DNA of 64,000 bases from Candidatus Nomurabacteria bacterium GW2011_GWE1_32_28 (GCA_000989515.1 LBOM01000001.1:61260-125259); one strand, 5' to 3'. Counted from the stretch's first letter, positions 1,995 to 44,457 are shown. Numbers and translations: made by a program. The notes: a model not told the origin generated them from the letters alone.

Positions 1995-3544
1995 TATTTT
2001 TGTGTTACATTAAATGATTCTATAATATCTCCTTCTACAATTTCCATTTTTGATTCGATCATCATTCCGAATTCTGCACCTTCTTCAACTTCTTTTACTT
2101 TTACTTTACTTTTTTCTAGATTTACTATTTTACCACGTCCAATTTCAAATTCTCTTCGCATTATTTTTACTGTTTTGTTTAATACTATACGTCCTTCTAT
2201 TGTTTTTCCACCTAGTATTTGACGTTCCTTGCTTTTATTAAAAACTCTAAGAATCTTTGCTTTTCCAATTGTTTCAACTGTTTCTATTTTAGGTCTTCTT
2301 TCTTCCATTTCAGCTTCAAGCCATTCTGTCATTTTGTATATAATATCAAAAAAAGAAATAGTTATTCCTCTTTTTTCTGCTAATTCAATTGCACTTTTGT
2401 CTATCTTGACGTTAAATCCGATTACTAATATATTTTCAGATCCACTTATTGTTTTTATATCTGATTCTCCTATAGGTCCTACTCCTTTTTGTATAATCTT
2501 AAATTTAGCATTTTTACTTACAGTAGCGTTAAATTCGTAGTTTATTTTATTTATTTCTTTTTCTATCGCTTCTAGTGAACCTGAAATATCAGCTTTTAAT
2601 ATTATTGGAATTATTTTTGTATCTGTTTGTAAAAATGAATTATCTTGTTTTTGTTTATCTTGTTTGTTGTTAGAAATTTTATCTTTTTCCCAATCATTAA
2701 TATATTTTTCTACATCTTTTTTGTTTTTAAAAGATTTAAATTCTGCACCTATTTTGGGAATTTTCGAGAAGCCGATAAGACGCGCAGGAGAAGAGAAACT
2801 TGCTTCAGATATTTTTTCTCCTAAAAAGTTTTCCATAATATTTGTAGAGCAAGTACTATCTTCTACTACAATAGTCATTCCTTTGAGCAGGGTTCCATTT
2901 TTAATGATAATAGTTGCTACTATTCCACGCTTGGGATCAAGATTTGCTTCAAGTATAAAACCAGAAGCATTTTCTTCTCTATCTCCAACAAAATTTTCCA
3001 TTTCAGCAAGAATATTTATTAAAGATAATAGATCATCTATTCCTTTTCCTGTTTTAGCAGAGATTTCAACAAATGGTATTTTGCCACCATAATTTTCAAG
3101 ATATATTTCATTTTCTGCTAATTCTGTTTTTGTTTTTTCAATATTTGCATTTTCTTTATCTATTTTATTTATTGCAACTATACATGGTATTTTATTTTCA
3201 ACTATAGTTTTCCAAGCTTCAATTGTTTGTGTTTTTACACCATCTTCAGCAGAAACAATTAAAATAGCAATATCAGCAATCTGACACCCTCGTTCGCGCA
3301 TTTTTGAAAAAGATTCATGTCCTGGGGTGTCAATGAAAGTTATTTTCTTTTTTTGTTTTGTGTCTGTTTGTGTATGTATAACTTCATAAGCAGAGGTATT
3401 TTGAGTTATCCCACCTATTTCTTTCTCTACTATGTTTGTTTCTCTAATATAATCCAAAAGTGTAGATTTACCATGGTCAATATGCCCCATTATTACAACT
3501 ACTGGTGATCGTTCTATGTTTTTATTTTCATTTATTTTTTCCAT
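1994..3544 (-). CDS. infB: translation initiation factor IF-2 (short form lacking N-terminal domains)
   Basis: G-domain motifs VVVIMGHIDHGKSTLLD and DTPGHESF, then NKIDK, then the IF-2 C-terminal beta-barrel domains. The protein is 516 aa. Confidence 0.9.
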   Translation of the reverse strand: MEKINENKNIERSPVVVIMGHIDHGKSTLLDYIRETNIVEKEIGGITQNTSAYEVIHTQTDTKQKKKITFIDTPGHESFSKMRERGCQIADIAILIVSAEDGVKTQTIEAWKTIVENKIPCIVAINKIDKENANIEKTKTELAENEIYLENYGGKIPFVEISAKTGKGIDDLLSLINILAEMENFVGDREENASGFILEANLDPKRGIVATIIIKNGTLLKGMTIVVEDSTCSTNIMENFLGEKISEASFSSPARLIGFSKIPKIGAEFKSFKNKKDVEKYINDWEKDKISNNKQDKQKQDNSFLQTDTKIIPIILKADISGSLEAIEKEINKINYEFNATVSKNAKFKIIQKGVGPIGESDIKTISGSENILVIGFNVKIDKSAIELAEKRGITISFFDIIYKMTEWLEAEMEERRPKIETVETIGKAKILRVFNKSKERQILGGKTIEGRIVLNKTVKIMRREFEIGRGKIVNLEKSKVKVKEVEEGAEFGMMIESKMEIVEGDIIESFNVTQK

Positions 3545-15993: not shown

Positions 15994-17022
15994 ATGTCAA
16001 CAATATCTTTTAAACCAAAACAAGTTACAAAAAGAATTACATCACATCTTCAGGATCGTACACGTGATGTGGTGATGAATCGTTTTGGATTGACACCTGA
16101 TTCAAAAAGTAAAACTCTTGAGGAGATTGGTAAAAAATATAACATTACAAGAGAACGTGTTCGTCAGATTGAAGACGTTGCTTTGAATTTAATAAAAAAG
16201 TCTTCTGCATACAAAGAAGAACAAGCAATATTTGAAGAACTTAAACAATTAATATATTCTTTAGGATCAATTGTTGCTGAGCATGATTTGTTGTCTCATA
16301 TTTCAAAAGATAAAAATACGCAAAATCATATTCATTTTTATTTAGAATTAGGAGATTTGTTTAAAAAACATAGAGAAGATAATCATTTTAAGACTCGATG
16401 GAGTGTTGATGATGAAATTGTTGACAAAGTACATGATTCTCTTAAAAAACTTTATTTAAGTTTAAATGATGAAGATCTTGTTTTAGAAACTGAAATGATA
16501 AAGAAGTTTTTTGATGAAATGAAAGATGTTACTGAACATTACAAAAACGAAGAGATTGCTCGAAGATGGCTTTCTATGTCTAAAACTATTTCAAAGAATC
16601 CATTAGGTGAATGGGGAAAAACAAGCTCACCAAATGTACGCACGCGTGGAGTTAAAGATTATGCTTTTCTTGTAATGAGAAAGCATGGTTCTCCTATGCA
16701 TTTTAAGGAAGTTGCAGACTCTATTTCTAAAACTTTTGGACGTAAGACTCATTATGCTACTTGTCACAATGAACTTATAAAAGATTCCAGATTTGTCTTA
16801 GTTGGGCGTGGTCTTTATGCATTATCTGAATGGGGATACAAGACAGGGATTGCTAGAGAGGTTATAAGAGATATTTTAAAAAGAGAGGGGCCACTTTCAA
16901 AGGAAGACATCGTTGAAAAAGTTATGAAAGAGAGGTATTTTAAAAAAAATACTATTTTAGTTAATCTTGTGAATCTTAAATTCTTTAAAAAGAATAAGAA
17001 TGGTCTTTATACTATAGTTTAA
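15994..17022 (+). CDS. DNA-binding protein with sigma-70 region-4-like HTH plus HARE-HTH domain
   Basis: The N-terminal LEEIGKKYNITRERVRQIEDVAL matches the sigma-70 region 4.2 pattern. The C-terminal GSPMHFKEVADSI...RFVLVGRGLYALSEWGY matches the HARE-HTH pattern. No sigma regions 2 or 3 are recognisable. Confidence 0.5.
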   Translation: MSTISFKPKQVTKRITSHLQDRTRDVVMNRFGLTPDSKSKTLEEIGKKYNITRERVRQIEDVALNLIKKSSAYKEEQAIFEELKQLIYSLGSIVAEHDLLSHISKDKNTQNHIHFYLELGDLFKKHREDNHFKTRWSVDDEIVDKVHDSLKKLYLSLNDEDLVLETEMIKKFFDEMKDVTEHYKNEEIARRWLSMSKTISKNPLGEWGKTSSPNVRTRGVKDYAFLVMRKHGSPMHFKEVADSISKTFGRKTHYATCHNELIKDSRFVLVGRGLYALSEWGYKTGIAREVIRDILKREGPLSKEDIVEKVMKERYFKKNTILVNLVNLKFFKKNKNGLYTIV

Positions 17023-17094: not shown

Positions 17095-18477
17095 ATGTAT
17101 GATATGAATATTCTAATAAAAGAAATGAAAGAGTTTTGGTTGGTACTTGCTTTTTTGATTCTTGGTTATTTTGTTTTACAATTTGATATTGTAGCTTTTT
17201 GGGTATATAAAATATTTTTAGGACTTTTGCCTATCGTTATAACAATAACTTTGGGTATAATTACTTATTTTTTTTGGCTTCATTACATTAGAGCTAATTT
17301 TATTTCTGGTATTGATTGGGTTTTACTTGAAATAGTTCCCCCAAGAGATGTAGAAAGATCACCAAAAGCTATGGAACTTTTTATTACAAATGCTCTTTAT
17401 CATACTAGTATGAAAAGTGGACTTGAATTATATTGGCAAGGAGCAGTTTGGTTTTGGTTTTCTTTAGAAATAGCATCTATTGATGGTCAGGTTCATTTTT
17501 ATGTTCGTACTCCTACACGTACTAAGGGATTATTAGAAACTCAAATATATGCCCAATTTCCACAAGCTCAAGTGAAAGTAGTAGAAGATTATACTTTGGC
17601 TGTTGATAAGATAAGTCCTGAAAGTAAATGGAATCTTTGGGGATGTGAATTTTCTTTGCTAAAACCTGATTCTTTTCCTATAAAGACTTATGTTGATTTT
17701 GGGTTAGATAAAGATCCCAAAGAAGAATATAAAATTGATCCTATTGCTCCGGTTATAGAACTTTTTGGTTCTATCGGAAAAGGTGAACAAATGTGGATGC
17801 AGATTGTTGTAACACCTTCAAAAAAAGAATATCCTGTACATGCAGGTATCTTTACTAAAACTCATGATTGGGTAAAACAAGCAGAAATGGAATTAGATAA
17901 AATAGCAAAACCATATACAAAGATTGAACATTTTCCCGATGGTTCTATTCAAAAATCAGGACGTACTCCTGATTCAGTAAGGCCACTTATTGATGCTATA
18001 AATAGAAAAATGATGAAAGTAGGTTTTGATACTGGGATTAGGGTTTGTTATGTCGCAAAGAAGGAGGTTTTTGATATGAGCAACAGAAGAAATATTCGTC
18101 TTATCTTTCGACAATATGCTCAACCTTACATAAATCAGCTTGAACGTATCAATTCTACTCAGGCTGATGCTTTTGGGACAAATTTTCTTGCTACCTTTTT
18201 TCCATTATCTAATAAAAAAGTTATGCGTTTAGCAGACAGAATGCTTGAAGAATACAGAGAAAGAGAATTTTTCCATCCACCAATGAGACATAAAATACAC
18301 CTACCTTGGCCTATTTCTCCTGTTTTGTTTCCTAATTTTTTTCATCATCACATAAATGTCTTGAATACTGAAGAGATAGCAACATTATGGCATTTCCCTG
18401 GTCAAATATTAAAAGTTCCTACATTAGAACGCATAGAATCAAAAGAAGCATCTCCTCCTACTAATTTACCTATATAG
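17095..18477 (+). CDS. hypothetical integral membrane protein
   Basis: 460 aa with 2-3 N-terminal TM helices and a roughly 350-aa soluble domain. No recognisable motif. Confidence 0.5.
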   Translation: MYDMNILIKEMKEFWLVLAFLILGYFVLQFDIVAFWVYKIFLGLLPIVITITLGIITYFFWLHYIRANFISGIDWVLLEIVPPRDVERSPKAMELFITNALYHTSMKSGLELYWQGAVWFWFSLEIASIDGQVHFYVRTPTRTKGLLETQIYAQFPQAQVKVVEDYTLAVDKISPESKWNLWGCEFSLLKPDSFPIKTYVDFGLDKDPKEEYKIDPIAPVIELFGSIGKGEQMWMQIVVTPSKKEYPVHAGIFTKTHDWVKQAEMELDKIAKPYTKIEHFPDGSIQKSGRTPDSVRPLIDAINRKMMKVGFDTGIRVCYVAKKEVFDMSNRRNIRLIFRQYAQPYINQLERINSTQADAFGTNFLATFFPLSNKKVMRLADRMLEEYREREFFHPPMRHKIHLPWPISPVLFPNFFHHHINVLNTEEIATLWHFPGQILKVPTLERIESKEASPPTNLPI

Positions 18478-30590: not shown

Positions 30591-31214
30591 ATGAAAGATA
30601 AAGAAGAAAAAGAAGATAATTTAAATGAATCTGTTGAAAATATTGAAGAAAATTCTGTTTCGTCAGATGATTCTGAAGTTCTAGAATTTGAATGGAATGT
30701 TGATGGTGAAGAAGATTTAAAGAAAACTTTAAAGAAATTTAGGGCTGATTTGAAAGAATGTAAACTTCAGAAAGAAGAATATCTAAATGGCTGGCAGAAA
30801 GAGCGTGCTGATTTTGCTAATTATCGTAAACAAGAAGATGACAGGAAAAATAATTTTTCAGAGGCAGTACGTGAACGCATCCTTACACGTTTCTTGAGTG
30901 TGTTGGATAGTTTTAATATGGCTTTTGCAAACAAAGAGTCTTGGAATAAAGTTGATGAGAATTGGCGCAAGGGAGTAGAATATATATATGCTCAATTAAA
31001 TACTGTATTTGAAGAATACGATGTAAAAGAAATTGGCATGGTGGGAGAAAATTTTGATCCAAATATTCATCAGTCTATAGATATGACAAAAACAGAAAAA
31101 AAAGAAGATAATCATAAAGTATCAGAAGTTATTCAGAAAGGTTACAAATTGGGCGACAGAGTAATTCGAGCTGCCCGAGTTAATGTTTTTGAATATAATG
31201 AAAACACAGAGTAA
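30591..31214 (+). CDS. grpE: nucleotide exchange factor GrpE
   Basis: An acidic N-terminus, a coiled coil, and the GrpE C-terminal beta domain (GENFDPNIHQSIDM...VIQKGYKLGDRVIRAARVNV). Confidence 0.8.
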   Translation: MKDKEEKEDNLNESVENIEENSVSSDDSEVLEFEWNVDGEEDLKKTLKKFRADLKECKLQKEEYLNGWQKERADFANYRKQEDDRKNNFSEAVRERILTRFLSVLDSFNMAFANKESWNKVDENWRKGVEYIYAQLNTVFEEYDVKEIGMVGENFDPNIHQSIDMTKTEKKEDNHKVSEVIQKGYKLGDRVIRAARVNVFEYNENTE

Positions 31215-32853
31215 AACATGTGAACATTGTAAAAATGAATTTACCATTAATGATGGTGAGCTTTCTTTGTATGAAAAAGTTGGTATAGAATTGCCGACTA
31301 TTTGTAATTTTTGTCGCATTAAATTACACTTGTCTTTTTGGATGTTTGGAAAATTTCGTAAAGGTAAATCAGATCTTTCGAGAAATAGTTTAATTACAGT
31401 ATTACCAGAGAAGAATAGATATCCTATTTATACATCTTCCGAATGGTATAGTGATAAATGGGAGGCTATGGATTATGGTCAAGACTATGATGGAAATAGA
31501 TCTTTTTTTGAACAATTACAAGAACTTCAAGAAAAAGTTCCTCATCCTCACCAAACTGGAGTTAAAAACACTAATTGTGATTGGTGTGATGATGTTTGGA
31601 ACTCTAAGAATTGTTATTTAGCACGTTCGATGGTAGGTTGTGAGCAATTATTTTATTCCTATAGAAACTATTTTGTTAAAAATTCTATTGATGTAGATGT
31701 TTGTTTTAATAGTGAAAAGTGCTATGACGCTGGAGAATGTCATCATTCATATAAACTTTTTTATTCTAAACATTCTCGTGATTGTATAGATTCATTCTTT
31801 TTATATGATTGTAAAAATTGTCAGGATTGTTTTATCTGTTGGAATTTACGTGGTAAATCATATTGTATAGAAAATATTCAATATTCTAGAGAAGAATATT
31901 TAGAAAAATTAAAGTCATTTAATCTTGGTTCATATAAATCAATACAAAATTATAAAAAGTATTTTGAGGAAATAGTTCAAAAAGAAGTAGTTCATAGACC
32001 AAATTTTAATTTCAAAACATATAATTCTTATGGTGATTATTTATTAAATTGTAAGAACTGTCATAATTGTAATACAATCAGTGAATCCGAAGATAGTTAT
32101 AATTGTGTTAGGGGAATTAGTCATAAATCTAATATTGACGCAAATGGTTGTTGGAATTCTGAATTATTAGGCAATTGTGCTAGTTGCATAGATGCTTATG
32201 CAGAAAAATATTGTGCCTGGTCATCTTCTCGATATTCTGAATATTTAGATTTATGTATTGAATGTGAATATTGTTTTGGTTGTGTTGGTTTAAAAAAGAA
32301 AAAATATTGTATTTTAAATAAACAATATGAAAAAGAATCCTTCGAGAAACTCAAGGCAAAGATCGTTGAAGATATGAAAAATAATGGAGAATATGGTCAA
32401 TTTTTACCATATTCTATGAGTGCTGGGCCGTTTAATTTTTCTAATAGTTTTTTATATTTTCCTGAAACTAAAAAAGAAGATATTTTAAAACTTGGTGGCT
32501 ATTGGGAAGATGTTAATGAAAGTGATATAGAGGGAGTGCCTACTAGTGAATTGCCTGATGACATAAAAGATGTGAAAGATTCTATCATAACTCAAGCATT
32601 AATCTGTTCTCTGACTGGCTGGCGTTTTAATATAGCCCAAAATGAGCTTTCTTTTTATAAAGAGAATAATATTCCACTTCCGAGATATCATTTTGATGTA
32701 CGAACAAAAAATCGTTTAAAATATTTAACAGTTTTACAAGCATATTCATATAAGTGTTTTTATTGTGAGAAAGAGGTGGAAGCCTATTATTTACCAGAAT
32801 GGAATTATCAAAAAATTGCTTGTGAAGAGTGTTATAAACAAAATATAAATTAA
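31183..32853 (+). CDS. large cysteine-rich protein, paralog 1 (multiple CxxC zinc-ribbon-like modules)
   Basis: 556 aa with about 45 Cys. N-terminal ribbon CEHC-x22-CNFC, repeated modules such as C-x2-C-x2-C-x2-C...KYCILNKQYEKE, and a C-terminal ribbon CFYC...CEEC. The start (31183 or ATG 31198) overlaps the grpE stop at 31214. Confidence 0.7.
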   Translation: MFLNIMKTQSKTCEHCKNEFTINDGELSLYEKVGIELPTICNFCRIKLHLSFWMFGKFRKGKSDLSRNSLITVLPEKNRYPIYTSSEWYSDKWEAMDYGQDYDGNRSFFEQLQELQEKVPHPHQTGVKNTNCDWCDDVWNSKNCYLARSMVGCEQLFYSYRNYFVKNSIDVDVCFNSEKCYDAGECHHSYKLFYSKHSRDCIDSFFLYDCKNCQDCFICWNLRGKSYCIENIQYSREEYLEKLKSFNLGSYKSIQNYKKYFEEIVQKEVVHRPNFNFKTYNSYGDYLLNCKNCHNCNTISESEDSYNCVRGISHKSNIDANGCWNSELLGNCASCIDAYAEKYCAWSSSRYSEYLDLCIECEYCFGCVGLKKKKYCILNKQYEKESFEKLKAKIVEDMKNNGEYGQFLPYSMSAGPFNFSNSFLYFPETKKEDILKLGGYWEDVNESDIEGVPTSELPDDIKDVKDSIITQALICSLTGWRFNIAQNELSFYKENNIPLPRYHFDVRTKNRLKYLTVLQAYSYKCFYCEKEVEAYYLPEWNYQKIACEECYKQNIN

Positions 32854-36920: not shown

Positions 36921-37019
36921 AAAATATTAAATTTAAAAGATTTTAAGAGTCGTGTTTGTTCCCTGTCTTCACGGACTCCGAGTGCGAAGGCTTAGAAATC
37001 TTTTAAATTTAATATTTTT
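36921..37019. repeat. 23-bp perfect inverted repeat enclosing 53-nt GC-rich core, between convergent genes
   Basis: AAAATATTAAATTTAAAAGATTT at 36921-36943 pairs with AAATCTTTTAAATTTAATATTTT at 36997-37019. The core GAGTCGTG...CACGGACTC forms an inner hairpin. Confidence 0.6.
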
Positions 37020-37530
37020 TTATACTTTCTAAAAAAGCTAGTTTTGTTTCCTCATCAATTTTGTCTGTGACGATTATTATTAGTTCTGTTCCCAATTTTA
37101 AATCCTTTTTAATATTAGTAAAAAGATGTTCATAGGGTAGGGGAGAAATCCATACTGTATTTTTTATACAAGTAAAATTTGCTTTCTTTAAAAGATAACG
37201 TAATGCTTCACGTTCATTTTTTCTTTCTTCTGGAATATCTATAATTATAATTCTCCATAATCCATCCCAATTTGTAGAGACAAGAGCACTACCTCCTTCT
37301 AGTCTAATCGAGTTTAATTTGTTTTTTCCTTTTTTTGTAAGTTTTAAATAATCTTTATTATCAGATTTAAGTATTTCTATACAACCAGATTCTATCAAGT
37401 TTTTTATTGAACGTGTTAAAGCATAAGTTATTTTAGGATCTTCAGTATCCTTTATAGATTCTAATGAAATAGCTGGTTTTTCAGCTAAAATTTTAAGTAT
37501 TTTATTAGAATATTCAATTTTTCTTGACAT
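37009..37530 (-). CDS. small wHTH-containing putative transcriptional regulator with C-terminal alpha/beta domain, divergent from dnaK
   Basis: 173 aa. The N-terminal about 90 aa is winged-helix-like. The C-terminal WDGLWRIIIIDIPEERKNEREALRYLLKK...TVWIS resembles the PaaX / Cas2-like fold; this is by eye only. Confidence 0.4.
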   Translation of the reverse strand: MSRKIEYSNKILKILAEKPAISLESIKDTEDPKITYALTRSIKNLIESGCIEILKSDNKDYLKLTKKGKNKLNSIRLEGGSALVSTNWDGLWRIIIIDIPEERKNEREALRYLLKKANFTCIKNTVWISPLPYEHLFTNIKKDLKLGTELIIIVTDKIDEETKLAFLESIKKY

Positions 37531-37558
37531 ACTTATATATTATAATATATACTGTCGT

Positions 37559-37590
37559 TTGACAAGTATTTTGCGGTCACGAAATACTTG
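37559..37590. promoter_or_regulatory. dnaK promoter -35 (TTGACA) overlapped by 9-bp inverted repeat CAAGTATTT-N10-AAATACTTG (candidate operator)
   Basis: Perfect -35 hexamer at 37559-37564, with IR arms at 37563-37571 and 37582-37590. Not CIRCE. Confidence 0.5.
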
Positions 37591-37659
37591 CAAAATATTT
37601 AATTAAGGTATATTATATTAATATAATTAATAATTATTATAAATTTAACTAAGAAATAT

Positions 37660-39567
37660 ATGTCAAAAATAATAGGAATAGATTTAGGTACTACGAATTC
37701 TGCAGTCGCTTTTATTGAAGGTGGTGTGCCAAAAATAATAGAAAATGTCGAAGGTAATCGTACAACGCCTTCTGTTGTTGCAACAGCAAAAAATGGTGAT
37801 CGTATTGTTGGTCTTCTTGGAAAAAGACAAGCTGTTACAAATCCTGAAAATACAATTTCTGAAATAAAACGTTACATGGGTCATAGATTTGATGATCCAG
37901 AAGTACAAAAAGATAAACCAACAGCTCCTTTTAAAATTGAAGCTGGAGAAGATGGAGGAGTAAAAGTAAAAATGTCAGATAAATTTTTTCGTCCAGAAGA
38001 AATTTCTGCAATGCTTCTACAAAAAATAAAAGCTGATGTTGAAGCTAAATTAGGAGAAAAAATAACAGAAGCAGTTATTACTGTTCCAGCATATTTTAAT
38101 GATGCACAAAGAAAAGCAACAAAAGATGCAGGACAGATAGCAGGTCTTGATGTAAAACGTATTATAAATGAACCGACTGCTGCTGCTCTTGCTTATGGAT
38201 TTAATAAAAAGAAAAATGAAAAAATAGTTGTGTACGATTTTGGTGGAGGAACTTTTGATGTTTCTGTTCTTGAAATTGGTGATGATGTTATTGAAGTTAA
38301 ATCCACTGATGGTGATAGTCATATGGGTGGAGGTGACATTGATCGAAAAGTTATTGCTTGGATTGCGGAAGAATATAAAAAAGAATCAGGCGTTGATGTA
38401 AGAAAAGATCCACTTGCTCATCAAAGATTAAAAGAAGCAGCTGAAAAAGCAAAACATGAGCTTTCTACAACGATTGAAACAGAAATAAATATTCCATTTA
38501 TTACTTCTGATGCAAGTGGTCCAAAACATTTACTTTTAAAAATGTCTCGCGCAACTCTTGAATCTTTAGCGAAAGAATATATAGATCGTTCTATCGAAAT
38601 AACGAAAAGAGCTCTTGAAGCATCTCCATTTAAAATGAATGAGATAAATGAAATTATAATGGTTGGTGGACAAACTAGAATGCCAGCAATAGTGGAAGCA
38701 GTTAAGAATCTTTTTGGGAAAACTCCAAATATGTCCATTAATCCTGATGAAGTTGTGGCTTTAGGTGCTGCTGTGCAAGCAGGAGTGCTTGCTGGAGATG
38801 TTCGTGATGTATTATTATTGGATGTTATACCTCTTTCTCTTGGTATTGAGACACTAGGAGGAGTTGGTACAAAATTAATTGAAAGAAATACAACTATTCC
38901 GGCTTCTAAATCTCAAGTATTTTCGACTGCTGCTGATAATCAAACTTCTGTTGAGATTCACATAGTACAAGGAGAACGTCCTATGGCAACTGATAATAAA
39001 TCTCTCGGACGTTTTATTTTGGACGGAATTCCACCAGCACCTCGAGGTATGCCACAAGTGGAAGTGACCTTTGATATTGATGTAAATGGAATATTAAATG
39101 TTACAGCTAAAGATAAAGCTTCTGGTAAAGCTCAATCAATAAAAATAGAAGCAAGTTCAGGATTAAAAGAAGAAGAAATTAAAAAAATGCAAGAAGATGC
39201 TGAACTTCATGCAGATGAAGATAAAAAGAAAAGAGAAATCGTTGATATAAAAAATACAGCTGAGATAGTTATTTATACTGCAGAAAAATCATTGAAGGAT
39301 AATGAAGCAAAAATTCCATCTGATATTAAAGATAATGTGAATGCAAAGATTACTGCATTGCGTGGAGTAAAAGATGGTGCAGATGCAGATGCTATTAAAA
39401 AAGCTACAGAAGAATTATCTGCTGAAATGTCTAAAATTGGTGAAGCTATGAGTAAAGCTGGAGCTGAGACTCCTCAGGGAGGTGCACCAGAAGAACAAAA
39501 CCAAGAAGTTCGTGATGCTGAATTTAAAGAAGGAGAGAAAACTGAAGAAGAAGATCCAAAAGTATAA
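37660..39567 (+). CDS. dnaK: molecular chaperone DnaK (Hsp70)
   Basis: [23 protein letters not shown] and a C-terminal lid; 635 aa. Confidence 0.95.
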
Positions 39568-39593
39568 TTTTTTAGCGAACTTGATTTCAAGAC

Positions 39594-39632
39594 AAAACTA
39601 AAAAGCCTCTATCGAGGGGCTTTTTAGTTTTG
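39594..39632 (+). terminator. long hairpin downstream of dnaK
   Basis: CAAAACTAAAAAGCC-TCTATCGAGG-GGCTTTTTAGTTTTG. Confidence 0.55.
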
Positions 39633-39657
39633 TCAATTTCTGGTATAATTTACCTGT

Positions 39658-41799
39658 ATGGATTTGCACGAAATACCAAAAAATAAAGAAATTACATATA
39701 TTGGTAATACTTCTTATAGGGATAAAAATGTTCTTTTTGGAATAAAACGCAAAGATAGGCGTCAACATGTTTATATTCTTGGAAAGTCAGGTACAGGTAA
39801 ATCTGCATTGATGTTTAATATGATTATTCAGAATATAGAAAATGGAGATGGTGTCTGTATGGTTGATCCACATGGGGAAAATGTTGAAGATATTCTTTCT
39901 GCTATTCCTCCTCATCGCATGAAAGATGTTGTTTACTTTAATCCTGCTGATGCTGATTTTCATATTGGATTTAATGTTTTAGAACTCATTGATCCAAAAT
40001 ATAAACATCTAGTGGCTTCTGGATTGATGGGGATTTTTACTAAAATTTGGGCAAATGCATGGAGTGCTCGTATGGAATACATTTTAAATAATGCAATCTT
40101 AGCATTACTTGACACTCCTGGTTCTACGCTTTTAGGTATACCAAGAATGCTTGTAGATAAAGATTATCGTCAGAAAATAATTACCAATTTAAAAGATCCA
40201 GTTATTAAAGCTTTTTGGGTACATGAATACGAGGCTTGGCAAGATAAATTTAGAAATGAAGCCATAGCACCTATTCAAAATAAAGTCGGACAATTCCTCT
40301 CTACTTCTATTATTCGAAATATTGTAGGTCAATCTGTGAGCACTATAAATATTTTTGACATAATGAATGAAGGAAAAATTTTTCTTGTGAATGTTTCTAA
40401 AGGACGTATTGGTGAAGACAACTCGTCACTTTTGGGAGGTATGATCATTACCAAAATTCAACTTGCTGCAATGGAACGTGTACGTATTCCTGAAGATGAA
40501 AGAAAAGATTTTTATCTTTACGTAGACGAATTTCAGAATTTCGTTACTGAAGCTTTTGCTGGTATTCTATCTGAGGCTAGAAAGTATAGATTAAATCTTA
40601 CTGTTGCTCATCAATATACTGCTCAGCTTATTTCAGACAAAAATTCAAGCGTAAGAGATGCTATCTTTGGTAACGTTGGTACTATGATGGTTTTTAGAGT
40701 AGGAGCAGATGATGCAGAATTTTTAGAAAAAGAATTTGAACCAGAGTTTACCCCTCAAGATATTGTAAGTCTGCCAAATTTTAAAATATATTTGAAATTA
40801 ATGATAGATGGTGTATCTTCTCGTCCATTTTCAGCAAAAACTCTTTCACCAATGGTAAAATCTGGCAATAAAGAAATTGAAGAAGAAGTCATTAAGTCTT
40901 CTCGTGATCTTTATTGTAAATCAAAAGAAGAAGTAGAAAGAGAAATAAACGATTGGAGTGGTATGTCTATCGGTGATGATAATAACAATGGTGTTGAGAA
41001 ATTTCCTGCAAGATGTTCTCTTTGTAAAAAAGAGACAACTGTGCCATTTAAACCAGAAGCTGGTAGACCTGTGTATTGTAAAGATTGTATAGCAAAGATA
41101 AAATCAGGTGAAGTTAAGCCCATAAAAGGATCTATGCATCAGATCAAGGAAGATGAATCTAAGTTTTTTCAACCTCTAGCTGATTTAGGTATAGAATTTA
41201 AACAAAAAAATGGAAATGGAAATGTGAACATTGAAAGGTATCCAGAAAGAATTGATAAACCAATAGAAGATCACTTAGTCAAAAAAGTTTTTTCTAAAAA
41301 TACTCCAATTTTAAAACCAAAGATATTTTCTTCAATTAAAAAAGTTTTTACTAAAGCTAAGCCTATTCAAAAAGAGAATTTAGCTCTTAAAGAAATTCTT
41401 AATAAAACTCTTTCAGAAAATAAAATTTTAGATGAAAAAGAGAAAGAAGTAAAAGAAAAAAAAGTAGAACCCACTATTTCTCTTAATGAGTTAAAAAATC
41501 AAAAACCTGAATTAAAAATTAAATTGAATGATAGATCAGCTAGTTCAGAAGAAATGAATAAATTGAAAGATTTTATCTCAGATAAAATAGTACCTATAGA
41601 AGTTGAAACTTCAACTCCTCAGACAAAGGCTGATCAGCCTTTGACTGAAACCCTAACACCAATTCAAGCTCCAATACTAGAACCAGTACAAATAACAGCA
41701 ACTGAACCAGAAAAAAAAGAAGAATCAATTAAGAAGATAGATTCAATAAATAAAGTTAAAGAAGTCCCAGAAGATGTTTTGAGAAAAATCTTGGAATAA
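39658..41799 (+). CDS. soluble FtsK/HerA-superfamily ATPase resembling T4SS coupling proteins (TrwB/TraD/VirD4-like), with C-terminal CxxC-x17-CxxC zinc ribbon and Lys/Glu-rich tail
   Basis: Walker A RRQHVYILGKSGTGKS followed by MVDPHGE, as in the TrwB pattern. Walker [12 protein letters not shown], then ARKYRLNLTVAHQY. No N-terminal TM helices. Zinc ribbon CSLCKKETTVPFKPEAGRPVYCKDC. 713 aa. Confidence 0.55.
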   Translation: MDLHEIPKNKEITYIGNTSYRDKNVLFGIKRKDRRQHVYILGKSGTGKSALMFNMIIQNIENGDGVCMVDPHGENVEDILSAIPPHRMKDVVYFNPADADFHIGFNVLELIDPKYKHLVASGLMGIFTKIWANAWSARMEYILNNAILALLDTPGSTLLGIPRMLVDKDYRQKIITNLKDPVIKAFWVHEYEAWQDKFRNEAIAPIQNKVGQFLSTSIIRNIVGQSVSTINIFDIMNEGKIFLVNVSKGRIGEDNSSLLGGMIITKIQLAAMERVRIPEDERKDFYLYVDEFQNFVTEAFAGILSEARKYRLNLTVAHQYTAQLISDKNSSVRDAIFGNVGTMMVFRVGADDAEFLEKEFEPEFTPQDIVSLPNFKIYLKLMIDGVSSRPFSAKTLSPMVKSGNKEIEEEVIKSSRDLYCKSKEEVEREINDWSGMSIGDDNNNGVEKFPARCSLCKKETTVPFKPEAGRPVYCKDCIAKIKSGEVKPIKGSMHQIKEDESKFFQPLADLGIEFKQKNGNGNVNIERYPERIDKPIEDHLVKKVFSKNTPILKPKIFSSIKKVFTKAKPIQKENLALKEILNKTLSENKILDEKEKEVKEKKVEPTISLNELKNQKPELKIKLNDRSASSEEMNKLKDFISDKIVPIEVETSTPQTKADQPLTETLTPIQAPILEPVQITATEPEKKEESIKKIDSINKVKEVPEDVLRKILE

Positions 41800-41855
41800 G
41801 ACATAAAAATTCTAAGTTTAACTTATTAAAAGAAATAATAAAATAAATCATAAAA

Positions 41856-43343
41856 ATGTCAAAGCCAAATAGGGTTCAAATAATAAAATATGGTCCACCC
41901 CCACCTGAATTACCTGTATTCGGAAAAGTCAGACCTGAAGAGGTTTCTTTTATTGGACGTACAAATTATGTGGCCTCTCTTGAAGAGAAGAAATTTATTT
42001 TTGGTATTAAACGTATAGATCGCAGGCGACATCTTTATATAATTGGTAAATCTGGTGTAGGAAAAACAAAATTAATAGAACTTTTTTTAAGACAAGATAT
42101 TACTTATAATCATGGTTTGTGCCTTATTGACCCGCATGGAGATGTTGTTGATTCGATACTTGATTATATTCCAAAAGAACGTATTGAAGATGTTTGTATA
42201 ATTGATCCTTCTGATGTTGACTTTCCTGTTTCTTTTAATCCTTTAGCTAATGTTGATCCAATGTTTAAATTTCAGTTAACCCAGGGTCTCATAGAGGTAT
42301 TTCAAAAACAATTCGGAGCAAATTGGACACCACGTCTAGAGCACGTTTTTCGTTTTACTTGTCTTGCATTACTTGATTATCCTCATGCCACAATGAGAGG
42401 GATGATTTCTATGTTGACTGATAGAAATTATAGACAGAAAGTAATCGAGTATATTACTGATGATATGGTGAAAAGATTCTTCGCTATTGAATTCGCAGAT
42501 TGGTCTGAGAAATTTGATACAGATGCTATTATTCCACTTGTAAACAAATTAGGACAATTCTTGTCTGATCCATTACTACGAAATATTTTTGGACAGAAGC
42601 AAAATAAAATAGATATGGGTAAGCTTATGAATGAAGGTAAAATAATTCTTATTAATCTTTCAAAGGGGCGTCTTGGAGAGGAGAATTCTTCTTTTCTTGG
42701 TTCTATGTTTTTGACTAAAATAAAACAAGCTGGAATGGAAAGAGCAAGTATCCCTGAAAAAGATCGTACAGATTTTTATCTTTATGTTGATGAGTTTCAA
42801 AACGTAGTTACACAAACATTTGAGAATATTTTATCAGAAGCTAGAAAATATGGATTAAATTTAACCATCGCCCATCAATATGTAGGACAAATTTTACCGA
42901 AAGTTCACCAAGCTGTACTTGGTAATTGCGGTAGTATTATTACTTTTCGTGTTGGAGGAGAAGATGCAGTAAAAATGAAGCCAGAATTTGCTCCAATATT
43001 CGAAGTGAAAGATATGATTAACTTAGCTGTAGGAGAAATATTTGTTAAAATGACTATTGACGGTGAATCCTATGATCCATTTTCAGCTGAGACTTTGAGG
43101 GTTTTGCCACCTACCCATAGATCATATAGAAGTGAAATAATTGAAGCATCTCGTAGAAAGTTCTCAATATCTAAAGATGATGCACAAAAACTTATTATGG
43201 AAGAAGAAGCAACTATTATAAGAAGTACAGAAGAAAAAGCTATAATTGAAGGAAAAGGAAAGAAAAAACCAGATGAAGAAGGCGAAGAGGAAGAAAAAGA
43301 AGAAAAAATTAGTAGTTCTCAAGAAGCTGAACCTATGATATAA
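41856..43343 (+). CDS. second soluble TrwB/VirD4-like FtsK/HerA-superfamily ATPase (paralog), acidic C-terminal tail
   Basis: [19 protein letters not shown]...[32 protein letters not shown]. 495 aa. The stop is 8 nt before the dnaJ start. Confidence 0.55.
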
Positions 43344-43350
43344 TACCCTT

Positions 43351-44457
43351 ATGAGTAAAGATTATTATGAAATTTTGGGGGTAAATAAAGGGGCTTCAAA
43401 AGATGAAATCAAAAAGGCTTTTTATAAATTAGCCCATAAATATCACCCTGATAAAAAAGAGGGAGATGAAAAAAAATTCAAACAAGTGAATGAGGCTTAT
43501 CAGATTCTTTCTGATGATTCGAAACGTTCAAAATATGATCAATTTGGGTCTGGTTTTGAAAATATGGGACAAGGAGGATATAGTGGAGCATCACAAGGTG
43601 GTTTCGAAGGATTTGATTTTAGTAATTTTTCTGGGGGATTCCAGAATGGAGCTTCAGATTTTGATTTTGGGAATTTGAATGATATCTTTAGTGATTTTTT
43701 TACAGGTGGAGGAAGAGGAGGAAGAACACAAGCTAGACGTGGGCGAGATATTTCTACCGAAATACAGATTTCTTTTTCTGAGTCAATTTTTGGGACTAAT
43801 AGAAAAATTTTAATTACTAAGACTTCAAACTGTGCTACTTGTAGTGGTTCTGGTGCAAAATCTGGAACTAAGATGGAAACTTGTAAATATTGTAATGGAC
43901 AAGGAAAAGTTCGAGAAGACAAAAGAACTATTTTAGGTACTATTTCAAGTACAAAAATTTGTGAAGAATGTCTAGGCTCTGGCGAAGTACCAAAAGAAAA
44001 ATGTGAAAATTGTAAGGGAAAAGGAGTGTTGCGTCGCGAAGAAGAAATTTCTATAAATATACCAGAAGGGATAAGAGATGGAGAGATGATTAGGATGACA
44101 GGTGGTGGTGAAGCTATTTCAAAAGGAACAGCAGGTGATTTATATATTAAAATAAATGTTGCTTCACATGCAGTGTTTAAAAGAGAAGGTAATGATCTAG
44201 CAATGGATTTAGATTTGAAACTTTCCGATGCATTATTAAGTACGGAATATCCTATAGAAACTCTAGATGGACAAATAAGTGTAAAGATTCCAGAAGGTGT
44301 GTCTATAAATGAAATTCTTCGTGTTAAAGGTAAGGGTGTGCCTTCCTCAAAAAGTAGACGTGGGGATTTGTTGATTAAATTAAAAATTAAACTCCCATCA
44401 AAAATTTCCAAAAAATCTAGAGAAATTATCGAACAACTGAGAAAAGAGGGAATATAA
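43351..44457 (+). CDS. dnaJ: molecular chaperone DnaJ
   Basis: J-domain with HPD (YHPDK), a G/F-rich region, four CxxCxGxG zinc-finger repeats and C-terminal domains. Confidence 0.9.

Follow-up and report, generated by a model that had tools for sequence, protein, structure and literature searches.

Two coupling-protein-like ATPases between dnaK and dnaJ in a Nomurabacteria genome and their genetic link to the membrane protein DUF8128

Type IV coupling proteins (T4CPs), among them TrwB of R388, VirD4/Cag-beta, DotL and TrsK of pGO1, have an N-terminal transmembrane (TM) domain, and their C-terminal tails bind adaptors, that of TraD binding TraM and that of DotL binding IcmS/W. Here we analyse two open reading frames (ORFs) for T4CP-like ATPases, P1 and P2, which lie between dnaK and dnaJ in a 64,000-nucleotide stretch of DNA from Candidatus Nomurabacteria bacterium GW2011_GWE1_32_28, a member of the Patescibacteria or candidate phyla radiation (CPR). 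This stretch, hereafter the window, has ~30% G+C, uniform along its length.

Patescibacteria account for a large share of bacterial diversity and are host-dependent, and their exchange of DNA or protein with their hosts is poorly understood. A VirD4-like ATPase that occurs about twice per genome, off the type IV secretion system (T4SS) and conserved at the level of Hsp70, is an obvious candidate for such exchange. A recent study counted 5,713 VirD4-like homologues across 2,918 Patescibacteria genomes and found just 148 near virB4; exaptation, in its authors' words, "cannot be ruled out" (Quinonero-Coronel et al., 2025, PMC12102498). P1 and P2 are almost certainly the same proteins, which are likewise VirD4-profile matches, present at about two per genome and rarely near virB4. 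Patescibacterial T4CP homologues away from virB4 were therefore already reported in 2025; their partnership with DUF8128, a membrane protein, appears undescribed, given that the available part of that paper mentions no DUF8128 partner, no fusion or split, no synteny with helix-turn-helix (HTH) or secDF genes, no division into two subtypes and no phage relatives. Searching the literature for DUF8128/PF26449 yielded no papers, nor did a search on HARE-HTH in Patescibacteria.

Our analysis indicates that P1 and P2 are probably the detached cytoplasmic motors of a chromosomal, Patescibacteria-wide translocase of the VirB4/T4CP kind (FtsK-HerA superfamily), which came to lie between dnaK and dnaJ by a lineage-specific rearrangement. 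We read them as detached motor halves because most of their relatives are fused to DUF8128 or adjoin it, and here it is encoded separately. Relatives were surveyed by scanning one genome per species with a six-sequence ATPase alignment; more than 580 loci were returned, and the best 80, all patescibacterial and taken with flanks of up to 8 kb, were analysed (L001 and so on; L083 and L084 denote phage G and CampHawk). A homologue search for the ATPases among all proteins gave 5,581 clusters at E<1e-30.

The ATPase pair and its closest relatives

A first-pass annotation of the window had described tandem ATPases between dnaK and dnaJ. Both ORFs were recovered with exactly the same limits, and dnaJ does follow shortly after the second, at 7 nt past its stop codon.

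37660-39567: dnaK, the upstream flank of P1
39658-41799, plus strand: P1, T4CP-like motor ATPase of 713 aa (ORF, Pfam, NCBIfam)
40999-41097, plus strand: treble-clef zinc ribbon of P1, residues 448-480 (zf_Tbcl_2, E 1e-12; TIGR04272)
41856-43343, plus strand: P2, paralogous T4CP-like motor ATPase of 495 aa (ORF, Pfam, AlphaFold AF2 model)
43351-44457: dnaJ, the downstream flank

P1 and P2 are 45% identical across 427 aa (E 3e-136). P1 is built from a core (residues ~1-440), the zinc ribbon, whose CxxC-x17-CxxC pattern is matched by the NCBIfam model TIGR04272, and a low-complexity charged tail (residues 490-713; 19% K+R, 18% D+E) that measures ~225 aa, and P2 from an N-terminus carrying a PPxNLP-type linker motif, a core, and an acidic tail (35% D+E) with an E-A-E-P-M-I tip; the ribbon and both tails had been noticed in the first pass. 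The two tails look like those of T4CPs. All of the coupling-protein motifs quoted earlier for the two proteins, Walker A, Walker B and the ARKY/AHQ boxes, were found in both: those of P1 include RRQHVYILGKSGTGKS and ARKYRLNLTVAHQY, with corresponding motifs in P2, and GKSGxGK[ST], hhhhDEF, ARKY and AHQ align with GATGTGKS, IDEL, GRKAG and GLQ of TrwB, that is, with its Walker A and B motifs, arginine finger and glutamine sensor. Neither protein has a TM helix by a Kyte-Doolittle 19-residue mean, for which the maximum is 1.1, and the lack of N-terminal TM helices that had been noted at the outset thus holds.

Walker A and B are intact in every full-length ATPase ORF across the 80 loci. Separately, in a 14-sequence alignment some P2-like cluster representatives (P0165, P0171, P0181, P0218) have degenerate Walker A/B motifs, such as GQKNIGKS, YLDSLEN and YVNNFNH; as judged from these residues, one paralogue may be catalytically inactive in some lineages.

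The family, profile and structure comparisons all put T4CPs first, as the TrwB/VirD4-like assignment in the first pass had anticipated, and we assign P1 and P2 with high confidence to the T4CP-like (TrwB/VirD4-type) P-loop ATPases. Both exceed the Pfam gathering thresholds for TrwB_AAD_bind, DUF87 and TraG-D_C; T4SS-DNA_transf passes for P1 only, P2 reaching 19.3 bits against a cutoff of 20.1. TrwB as a tblastn query matched P1 (E 9e-7, 327 aa) and was the sole PDB match to the single P1 and P2 sequences, and the family profile ranked TrwB (4.6e-7) and DotL (7.7e-6) before HerA (7e-4). In Foldseek, the P2 model (pLDDT, the predicted local distance difference test, 67 overall and 75-93 in the core at residues 60-330) gave TrwB as the best match (E 2.4e-8), Cag-beta and DotL next, and HerA and VirB4 at lower rank. 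With hhalign, the values were 94.5% for the T4CP TrsK of pGO1 (316 columns) and 92.5% for TrwB, compared with 89.5% for TrsE, the VirB4 of pGO1, and 29% for TrwK, the VirB4 of R388; the match to TIGR00929 (VirB4_CagE) is weak (E 0.0056). By these comparisons, the motor of P1/P2 is nearer to T4CPs than to VirB4. In the model of P2, the strands of Walker A and Walker B are also separated by a confident all-helical insertion (residues 135-260), which may correspond in position to the T4CP all-alpha domain.

P1 and P2 thus share with T4CPs the Walker A context, the DE of Walker B, the arginine finger and the glutamine sensor, but differ from them in having no TM domain, in the zinc ribbon of P1 and in belonging to a family that is partnered with or fused to DUF8128, a VirB4-N-terminal-domain-like module absent from canonical T4CPs. 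They differ, moreover, in being core-chromosomal, present at about two per genome, as conserved as DnaK and with no relaxase, VirB4 or T4SS gene found near by tblastn. Among close relatives, identity reaches 86-90% in the ATPase cores as against 81-88% in DnaK, a level of conservation that is unusual for a T4CP-like protein.

The DUF87/HerA Pfam matches, the HerA structures in the Foldseek list, a PADLOC match to mad8 (E 1e-14) and weak matches to several HerA models would be expected if P1 and P2 were repair or defence helicases of the HerA type, either HerA-NurA-like or like mad8 of MADS. We consider this scarcely credible: T4CPs outscore HerA throughout, no nuclease adjoins the pair, neither the window nor the loci encode NurA, Sir2, DUF4297 or another defence partner, and the context is a housekeeping, core-genome one of very high conservation in which the conserved partner is DUF8128. 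A HerA-NurA or defence identity was accordingly rejected, the mad8 and weak HerA matches being isolated and without partner genes.

DUF8128 and a probable split, membrane-docked translocase

Many ATPase homologues from the all-protein search have an N-terminal extension of 250-400 aa, some with a TM helix. The extension of the fused homologues is homologous to an ORF elsewhere in the window (tblastn E 1.8e-40), which is preceded directly by a gene for a protein with sigma-70 region 4 and HARE-HTH domains (SigHARE).

15994-17022, plus strand: SigHARE, 342 aa, sigma-70 region 4 and a HARE-HTH as in RNA polymerase delta (Pfam), directly upstream of DUF8128
17095-18477, plus strand: DUF8128 (PF26449) membrane protein, 460 aa, with two N-terminal TM helices, an alpha/beta domain and a C-terminal PPxNLP

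PF26449 was assigned to P0271, a sequence identical to the product of this ORF, and to almost every homologue listed. In ~61 of the 80 loci, about three quarters, the ATPase forms one protein with DUF8128 or is encoded just downstream of it: both are in a single ORF in 17 loci, are neighbouring genes with a gap of at most 200 nt in ~37, and are separated by a gene for a small TM protein, orf188, in ~7. We are therefore highly confident that DUF8128 is the conserved genetic partner of these ATPases. P1 and P2 had been described in the first pass as soluble ATPases, and this stands inasmuch as neither has a TM helix, but with a membrane protein fused or adjacent to the ATPase in most relatives, the membrane anchor for P1 and P2 is probably supplied in trans by DUF8128.

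The conserved gene order in relatives is secD-secF-SigHARE-DUF8128-ATPase(s), with mnmA and alaS further downstream, and in 48 of the 80 loci the gene immediately before DUF8128 encodes a SigHARE homologue. In the window, SigHARE, DUF8128, mnmA and alaS keep this order and the ATPases alone have moved; it contains no homologue of secDF, orf188 or CutA, which are neighbours in relatives. SigHARE may serve the system as a regulator or a DNA-binding adaptor. Where the two parts are encoded separately, stand-alone DUF8128 mostly ends in PPxNLP, or, in some P2-type loci, has this motif a few residues before its end; since the same motif is found at the start of P2, the split falls at slightly differing points of one linker. 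As to orf188, this protein of ~180 aa has an N-terminal TM segment, lies between DUF8128 and a P2-type ATPase (L008, at 2840-3406; L011-L013; L024; L026) and belongs to no Pfam or NCBIfam family.

An AlphaFold model of DUF8128 from 37 sequences (pLDDT 80; predicted TM-score, pTM, 0.79) has two long hydrophobic N-terminal helices followed by an alpha/beta domain, and in Foldseek chains of TrwK ranked first. With moderate confidence, the model suggests that DUF8128 is a docking module resembling the N-terminal domain of VirB4. In fused relatives this VirB4-type fold is joined to the motor, which gives a VirB4-like domain order with a motor nearer to that of T4CPs. The family therefore resembles VirB4 (TrwK of R388) in its N-terminal fold but not in its motor, nor does it have a VirB3/VirB6/VirB8 neighbourhood. 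Splitting of a VirB4-type protein has a precedent in the TrsD and TrsE pair of pGO1, in which trsD lies directly upstream of the virB4 gene and TrsD is reported to be remotely homologous to the N-terminal portion of VirB4 (PMC12102498). The match to EccE/EccC of type VII secretion is much weaker than that to VirB4, and no other ESX components are present.

In the mechanism that we favour, P1 and/or P2 would form ATP-driven hexameric rings, by analogy with TrwB and VirB4, and these rings would dock at the membrane on the cytoplasmic domain of DUF8128, with PPxNLP as an element common to the DUF8128 C-terminus and the P2 N-terminus, and drive substrate to a membrane channel. The ribbon and tail of P1, and the acidic tail and E-P-M-I tip of P2, could then act as docking sites for adaptors or substrates, by analogy with T4CP tails.

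Several points weigh against this picture. Docking of P1 and P2 on DUF8128 rests on gene linkage, gene fusion and predicted folds; in the window DUF8128 and the ATPases are 22 kb apart, and the synteny with SigHARE and secDF may reflect ancestry of the gene order and not a functional tie. The likeness of DUF8128 to the VirB4 N-terminal domain is structural, with the aligned region of TrwK deduced and not read from the alignment, and no sequence-level similarity was found between DUF8128 and TrwK/VirB4, pGO1 TrsD or any PDB chain. Residues 340-410, in the C-terminal part of the P2 nucleotide-binding domain, are poorly modelled. Crude hydropathy gives a TM segment in 39 of 45 stand-alone but 7 of 16 fused DUF8128 sequences, and gp156, the homologue in phage G, has no TM anchor; membrane anchoring of DUF8128 is common, not universal. 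In Southlakia epibionticum, the T4SS is reported to be essential and the T4CP homologue non-essential (PMC12102498). Finally, with just 7 nt between P2 and dnaJ, co-transcription of dnaJ is possible in this genome.

The dnaK-dnaJ setting

The first-pass annotation took the position between dnaK and dnaJ to be functionally meaningful, with the ATPases inserted in one chaperone locus and perhaps acting either as translocase-like motors or with DnaK and DnaJ. The T4CP-like motor type is in keeping with the former role. In the latter, P1 and P2 would be substrate-delivery or remodelling ATPases working with DnaK/DnaJ and embedded in a chaperone operon for co-regulation, which we regard as very improbable. 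It would explain the location of the ATPases between dnaK and dnaJ, seen in the window and four to seven close relatives, the distance of 7-118 nt that separates P2 and dnaJ in six genomes, and the presence of dnaK-dnaJ 2-3.5 kb upstream of the SigHARE-DUF8128-ATPase cluster in L025 and L079. However, dnaK and/or dnaJ flank the ATPases in 7 of the 80 loci (L001-L006 and L009), all of them from close Nomurabacteria-type relatives with P2 82-88% identical, and the chaperone genes are gone from ATPase loci at a P2 identity of 70-78%. Even among close relatives the interval between dnaK and dnaJ differs in content, with extra genes for Cys-rich proteins (C3cys, described below), an ATP-binding cassette (ABC) gene or spacers of several kb. 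Moreover, in L025 and L079 dnaK directly neighbours dnaJ, with no ATPases between them; because they are near the conserved cluster there, the Nomurabacteria arrangement suggests local reshuffling of an old neighbourhood.

The intergenic features around dnaK and P1 are as follows.

37009-37530, minus strand: PaaX-like regulator (PaaX_M domain), divergent from dnaK
37558-37595: perfect inverted repeat CAAGTATTT-N10-AAATACTTG over the dnaK promoter region, unique in the window
39591-39634, plus strand: intrinsic-terminator-like hairpin closing the dnaK unit (20-bp stem, T run, -33 kcal/mol)
39641-39649, plus strand: extended -10-like box TGGTATAAT, 8 nt before the P1 start codon, as read from the sequence

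The hairpin and the TGnTATAAT box part dnaK from P1, so that the ATPases are not simply inserted into a single chaperone operon. A terminator is kept in position after dnaK, with hairpins of unlike sequence at the equivalent site in L001, L003 and L006, and TGnTATAAT-like boxes occur also in L003 and L006. By its match to the consensus, the TGGTATAAT box is a candidate promoter for P1-P2, possibly including dnaJ. The pairing of dnaK with a PaaX-like regulator recurs in L001, L003 and L006, and the regulator and its repeat may represent a non-HrcA form of heat-shock control; no copy of this operator-like repeat was found ahead of P1, P2 or dnaJ or anywhere else in the window.

In most relatives, then, the pair is unlinked to dnaK/dnaJ. 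Because linkage is restricted to close relatives, a terminator follows dnaK and the operator-like repeat is found at dnaK only, the functional connection put forward in the first pass is not supported, and the tempting link of P1 and P2 to DnaK and DnaJ is removed: their position is incidental, a lineage-specific rearrangement.

A second TGnTATAAT box was observed at 43336-43344, before dnaJ. The boxes of P1 and dnaJ end 6-8 nt ahead of the start codons and, as consensus matches, hint at leaderless or very-short-leader mRNAs for both genes.

Subtypes, phage relatives and possible substrates

Two ATPase subtypes could be distinguished among the relatives. In most CPR lineages the ATPase directly after DUF8128 is of the P1-type, which often carries a CxxC-x15-20-CxxC zinc ribbon, a ribbon being present in 39 of the 60 P1-type ORFs. 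P2-type ATPases occur in Paceibacteria-like genomes and, fused, in Abawaca- and Peregrinibacteria-like genomes; their C-terminus is a conserved tip, E-P-[LM]-I or F-x-x-P-[IV]-V, the former kept in L001-L018 and L035. Single arrays with both types, DUF8128-(orf188)-P2-P1 or DUF8128-P1-P2, occur in L019, L024 and L026 and are consistent with two motors that would share one platform, or with a hetero-oligomer. Distant homologues of ~1,200 aa (P0144, P0188, P0255) were also observed, of which P0144, a high-G+C type sequence, contains two tandem ATPase modules in one polypeptide and is a covalent counterpart of the tandem-paralogue layout.

The P2-type is associated with the C3cys proteins, of which the window encodes two.

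31183-32853, plus strand: C3cys paralogue, Cys-rich, 556 aa
33092-34864, plus strand: C3cys paralogue, Cys-rich, 590 aa

C3cys members have 22-48 Cys, with a treble-clef zinc finger (zf_Tbcl) at the N-terminus and, at the C-terminus, a CxxC-x17/18-CxxC ribbon resembling that of P1; NCBIfam and PDB gave no match to them, and their matches in Pfam and PHROG are limited to a weak zf_Tbcl and marginal ones, respectively. Fifty copies were found, in 18 of the 28 loci with a P2-type ATPase and in none of the 52 P1-only loci, with copy numbers as high as 10 in L015 and 7-8 in L020, and identity among paralogues is 30-50%. The P2-type motor might have these proteins as its clients or cargo; alternatively, the distribution might simply follow lineage.

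The C3cys pattern, together with the P1-like ribbon, would also fit P1 and P2 being true coupling proteins of a T4SS encoded elsewhere near the origin, which recruit protein effectors, possibly C3cys, and pass them to the VirB4/VirB6 channel, with DUF8128 as the channel adaptor. T4CPs are often encoded away from virB4 (PMC12102498), reviews count a VirD4-like component among the parts of the Saccharibacteria T4SS (PMC12857230), and a VirB4-N-terminal-domain-like fold could dock at the VirB4 site. We nevertheless consider this unlikely: the data for S. epibionticum mentioned above count against it too, the C3cys association may be confounded by phylogeny, and no secretion signal was recognised in C3cys. 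Furthermore, tblastn with TrwK, TrwM, TrwC, VirB11, phage G gp155 and Replic_Relax as queries detected VirB4, VirB3, relaxase and Replic_Relax genes neither in the window nor in the flanks, up to 8 kb, of the 80 loci, although divergent ones could escape BLAST, and gave a single VirB11-like match in the 80 loci and none in the window.

Relatives with the fused architecture, DUF8128-like followed by T4CP-like, occur in large Bacillus phages. The PHROG family phrog_5156 spans both parts, and P1 matches its positions 375-805 (E 8e-63). In phage G, gp156 (825 aa; L083, 90859-93336), whose N-terminal half is DUF8128-like (hhalign 98.4%, E 1e-14), adjoins gp155, a P-loop ATPase of the VirB4/TraG type. 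The homologue in the SPO1-like phage CampHawk (906 aa; L084, 93497-96217) is followed immediately by a Replic_Relax (PF13814) gene, and a ParM-like gene lies four small ORFs upstream of it. The phage proteins differ from those of Patescibacteria in being only 22-27% identical to them, in the absence of the TM hairpin and in their other neighbours.

Confidence in any particular substrate is low. The conserved HTH neighbour and the phage relatives beside a VirB4-like ATPase or a replication-relaxation protein make the assignment lean towards DNA or a nucleoprotein, to which we give close to an even chance; the main alternative, a protein fed to the patescibacterial T4SS, is possible with a somewhat smaller chance. 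DUF8128, the ATPase(s) and SigHARE could constitute a previously unrecognised, T4SS-independent translocation machine of the core genome, related to proteins of large Bacillus phages and forming a third lineage next to those of VirB4 and VirD4, although we hold this to be doubtful. If so, the machine would combine an N-terminal module of the VirB4 type with a motor of the coupling-protein type, might carry DNA or nucleoprotein across the membrane of host-dependent cells and would have a P2 subtype perhaps specialised for the expanded C3cys zinc-ribbon proteins. The DUF8128 partner, HTH neighbour and phage relatives offer a testable architecture that bears on the divergence of VirB4 and coupling proteins.

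A T4SS-independent pump for chromosome segregation or DNA uptake, similar to FtsK/SpoIIIE and with SigHARE as its DNA-recognition module, would belong to the same ATPase superfamily and be as highly conserved in the core genome, and would suit the conserved HTH neighbour, the nearby envelope and division genes ftsW, murG, mraY and secDF, and the ParM-like and Replic_Relax genes near the SPO1-like homologue. It overlaps with the split, DUF8128-docked translocase that we propose, the sole difference being the channel used. It is nonetheless improbable, as Saccharibacteria have an annotated ftsK (PMC10768705), their competence depends on ComEC and type IV pili (PMC12857230), and a gamma domain that reads FtsK-orienting polar sequences (KOPS) was not detected. 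The idea that the system replaces an FtsK missing from CPR bacteria is weakened by the annotated ftsK of TM7x (PMC10768705). The phage homologues themselves are annotated as hypothetical or mis-annotated as MsbA-like.

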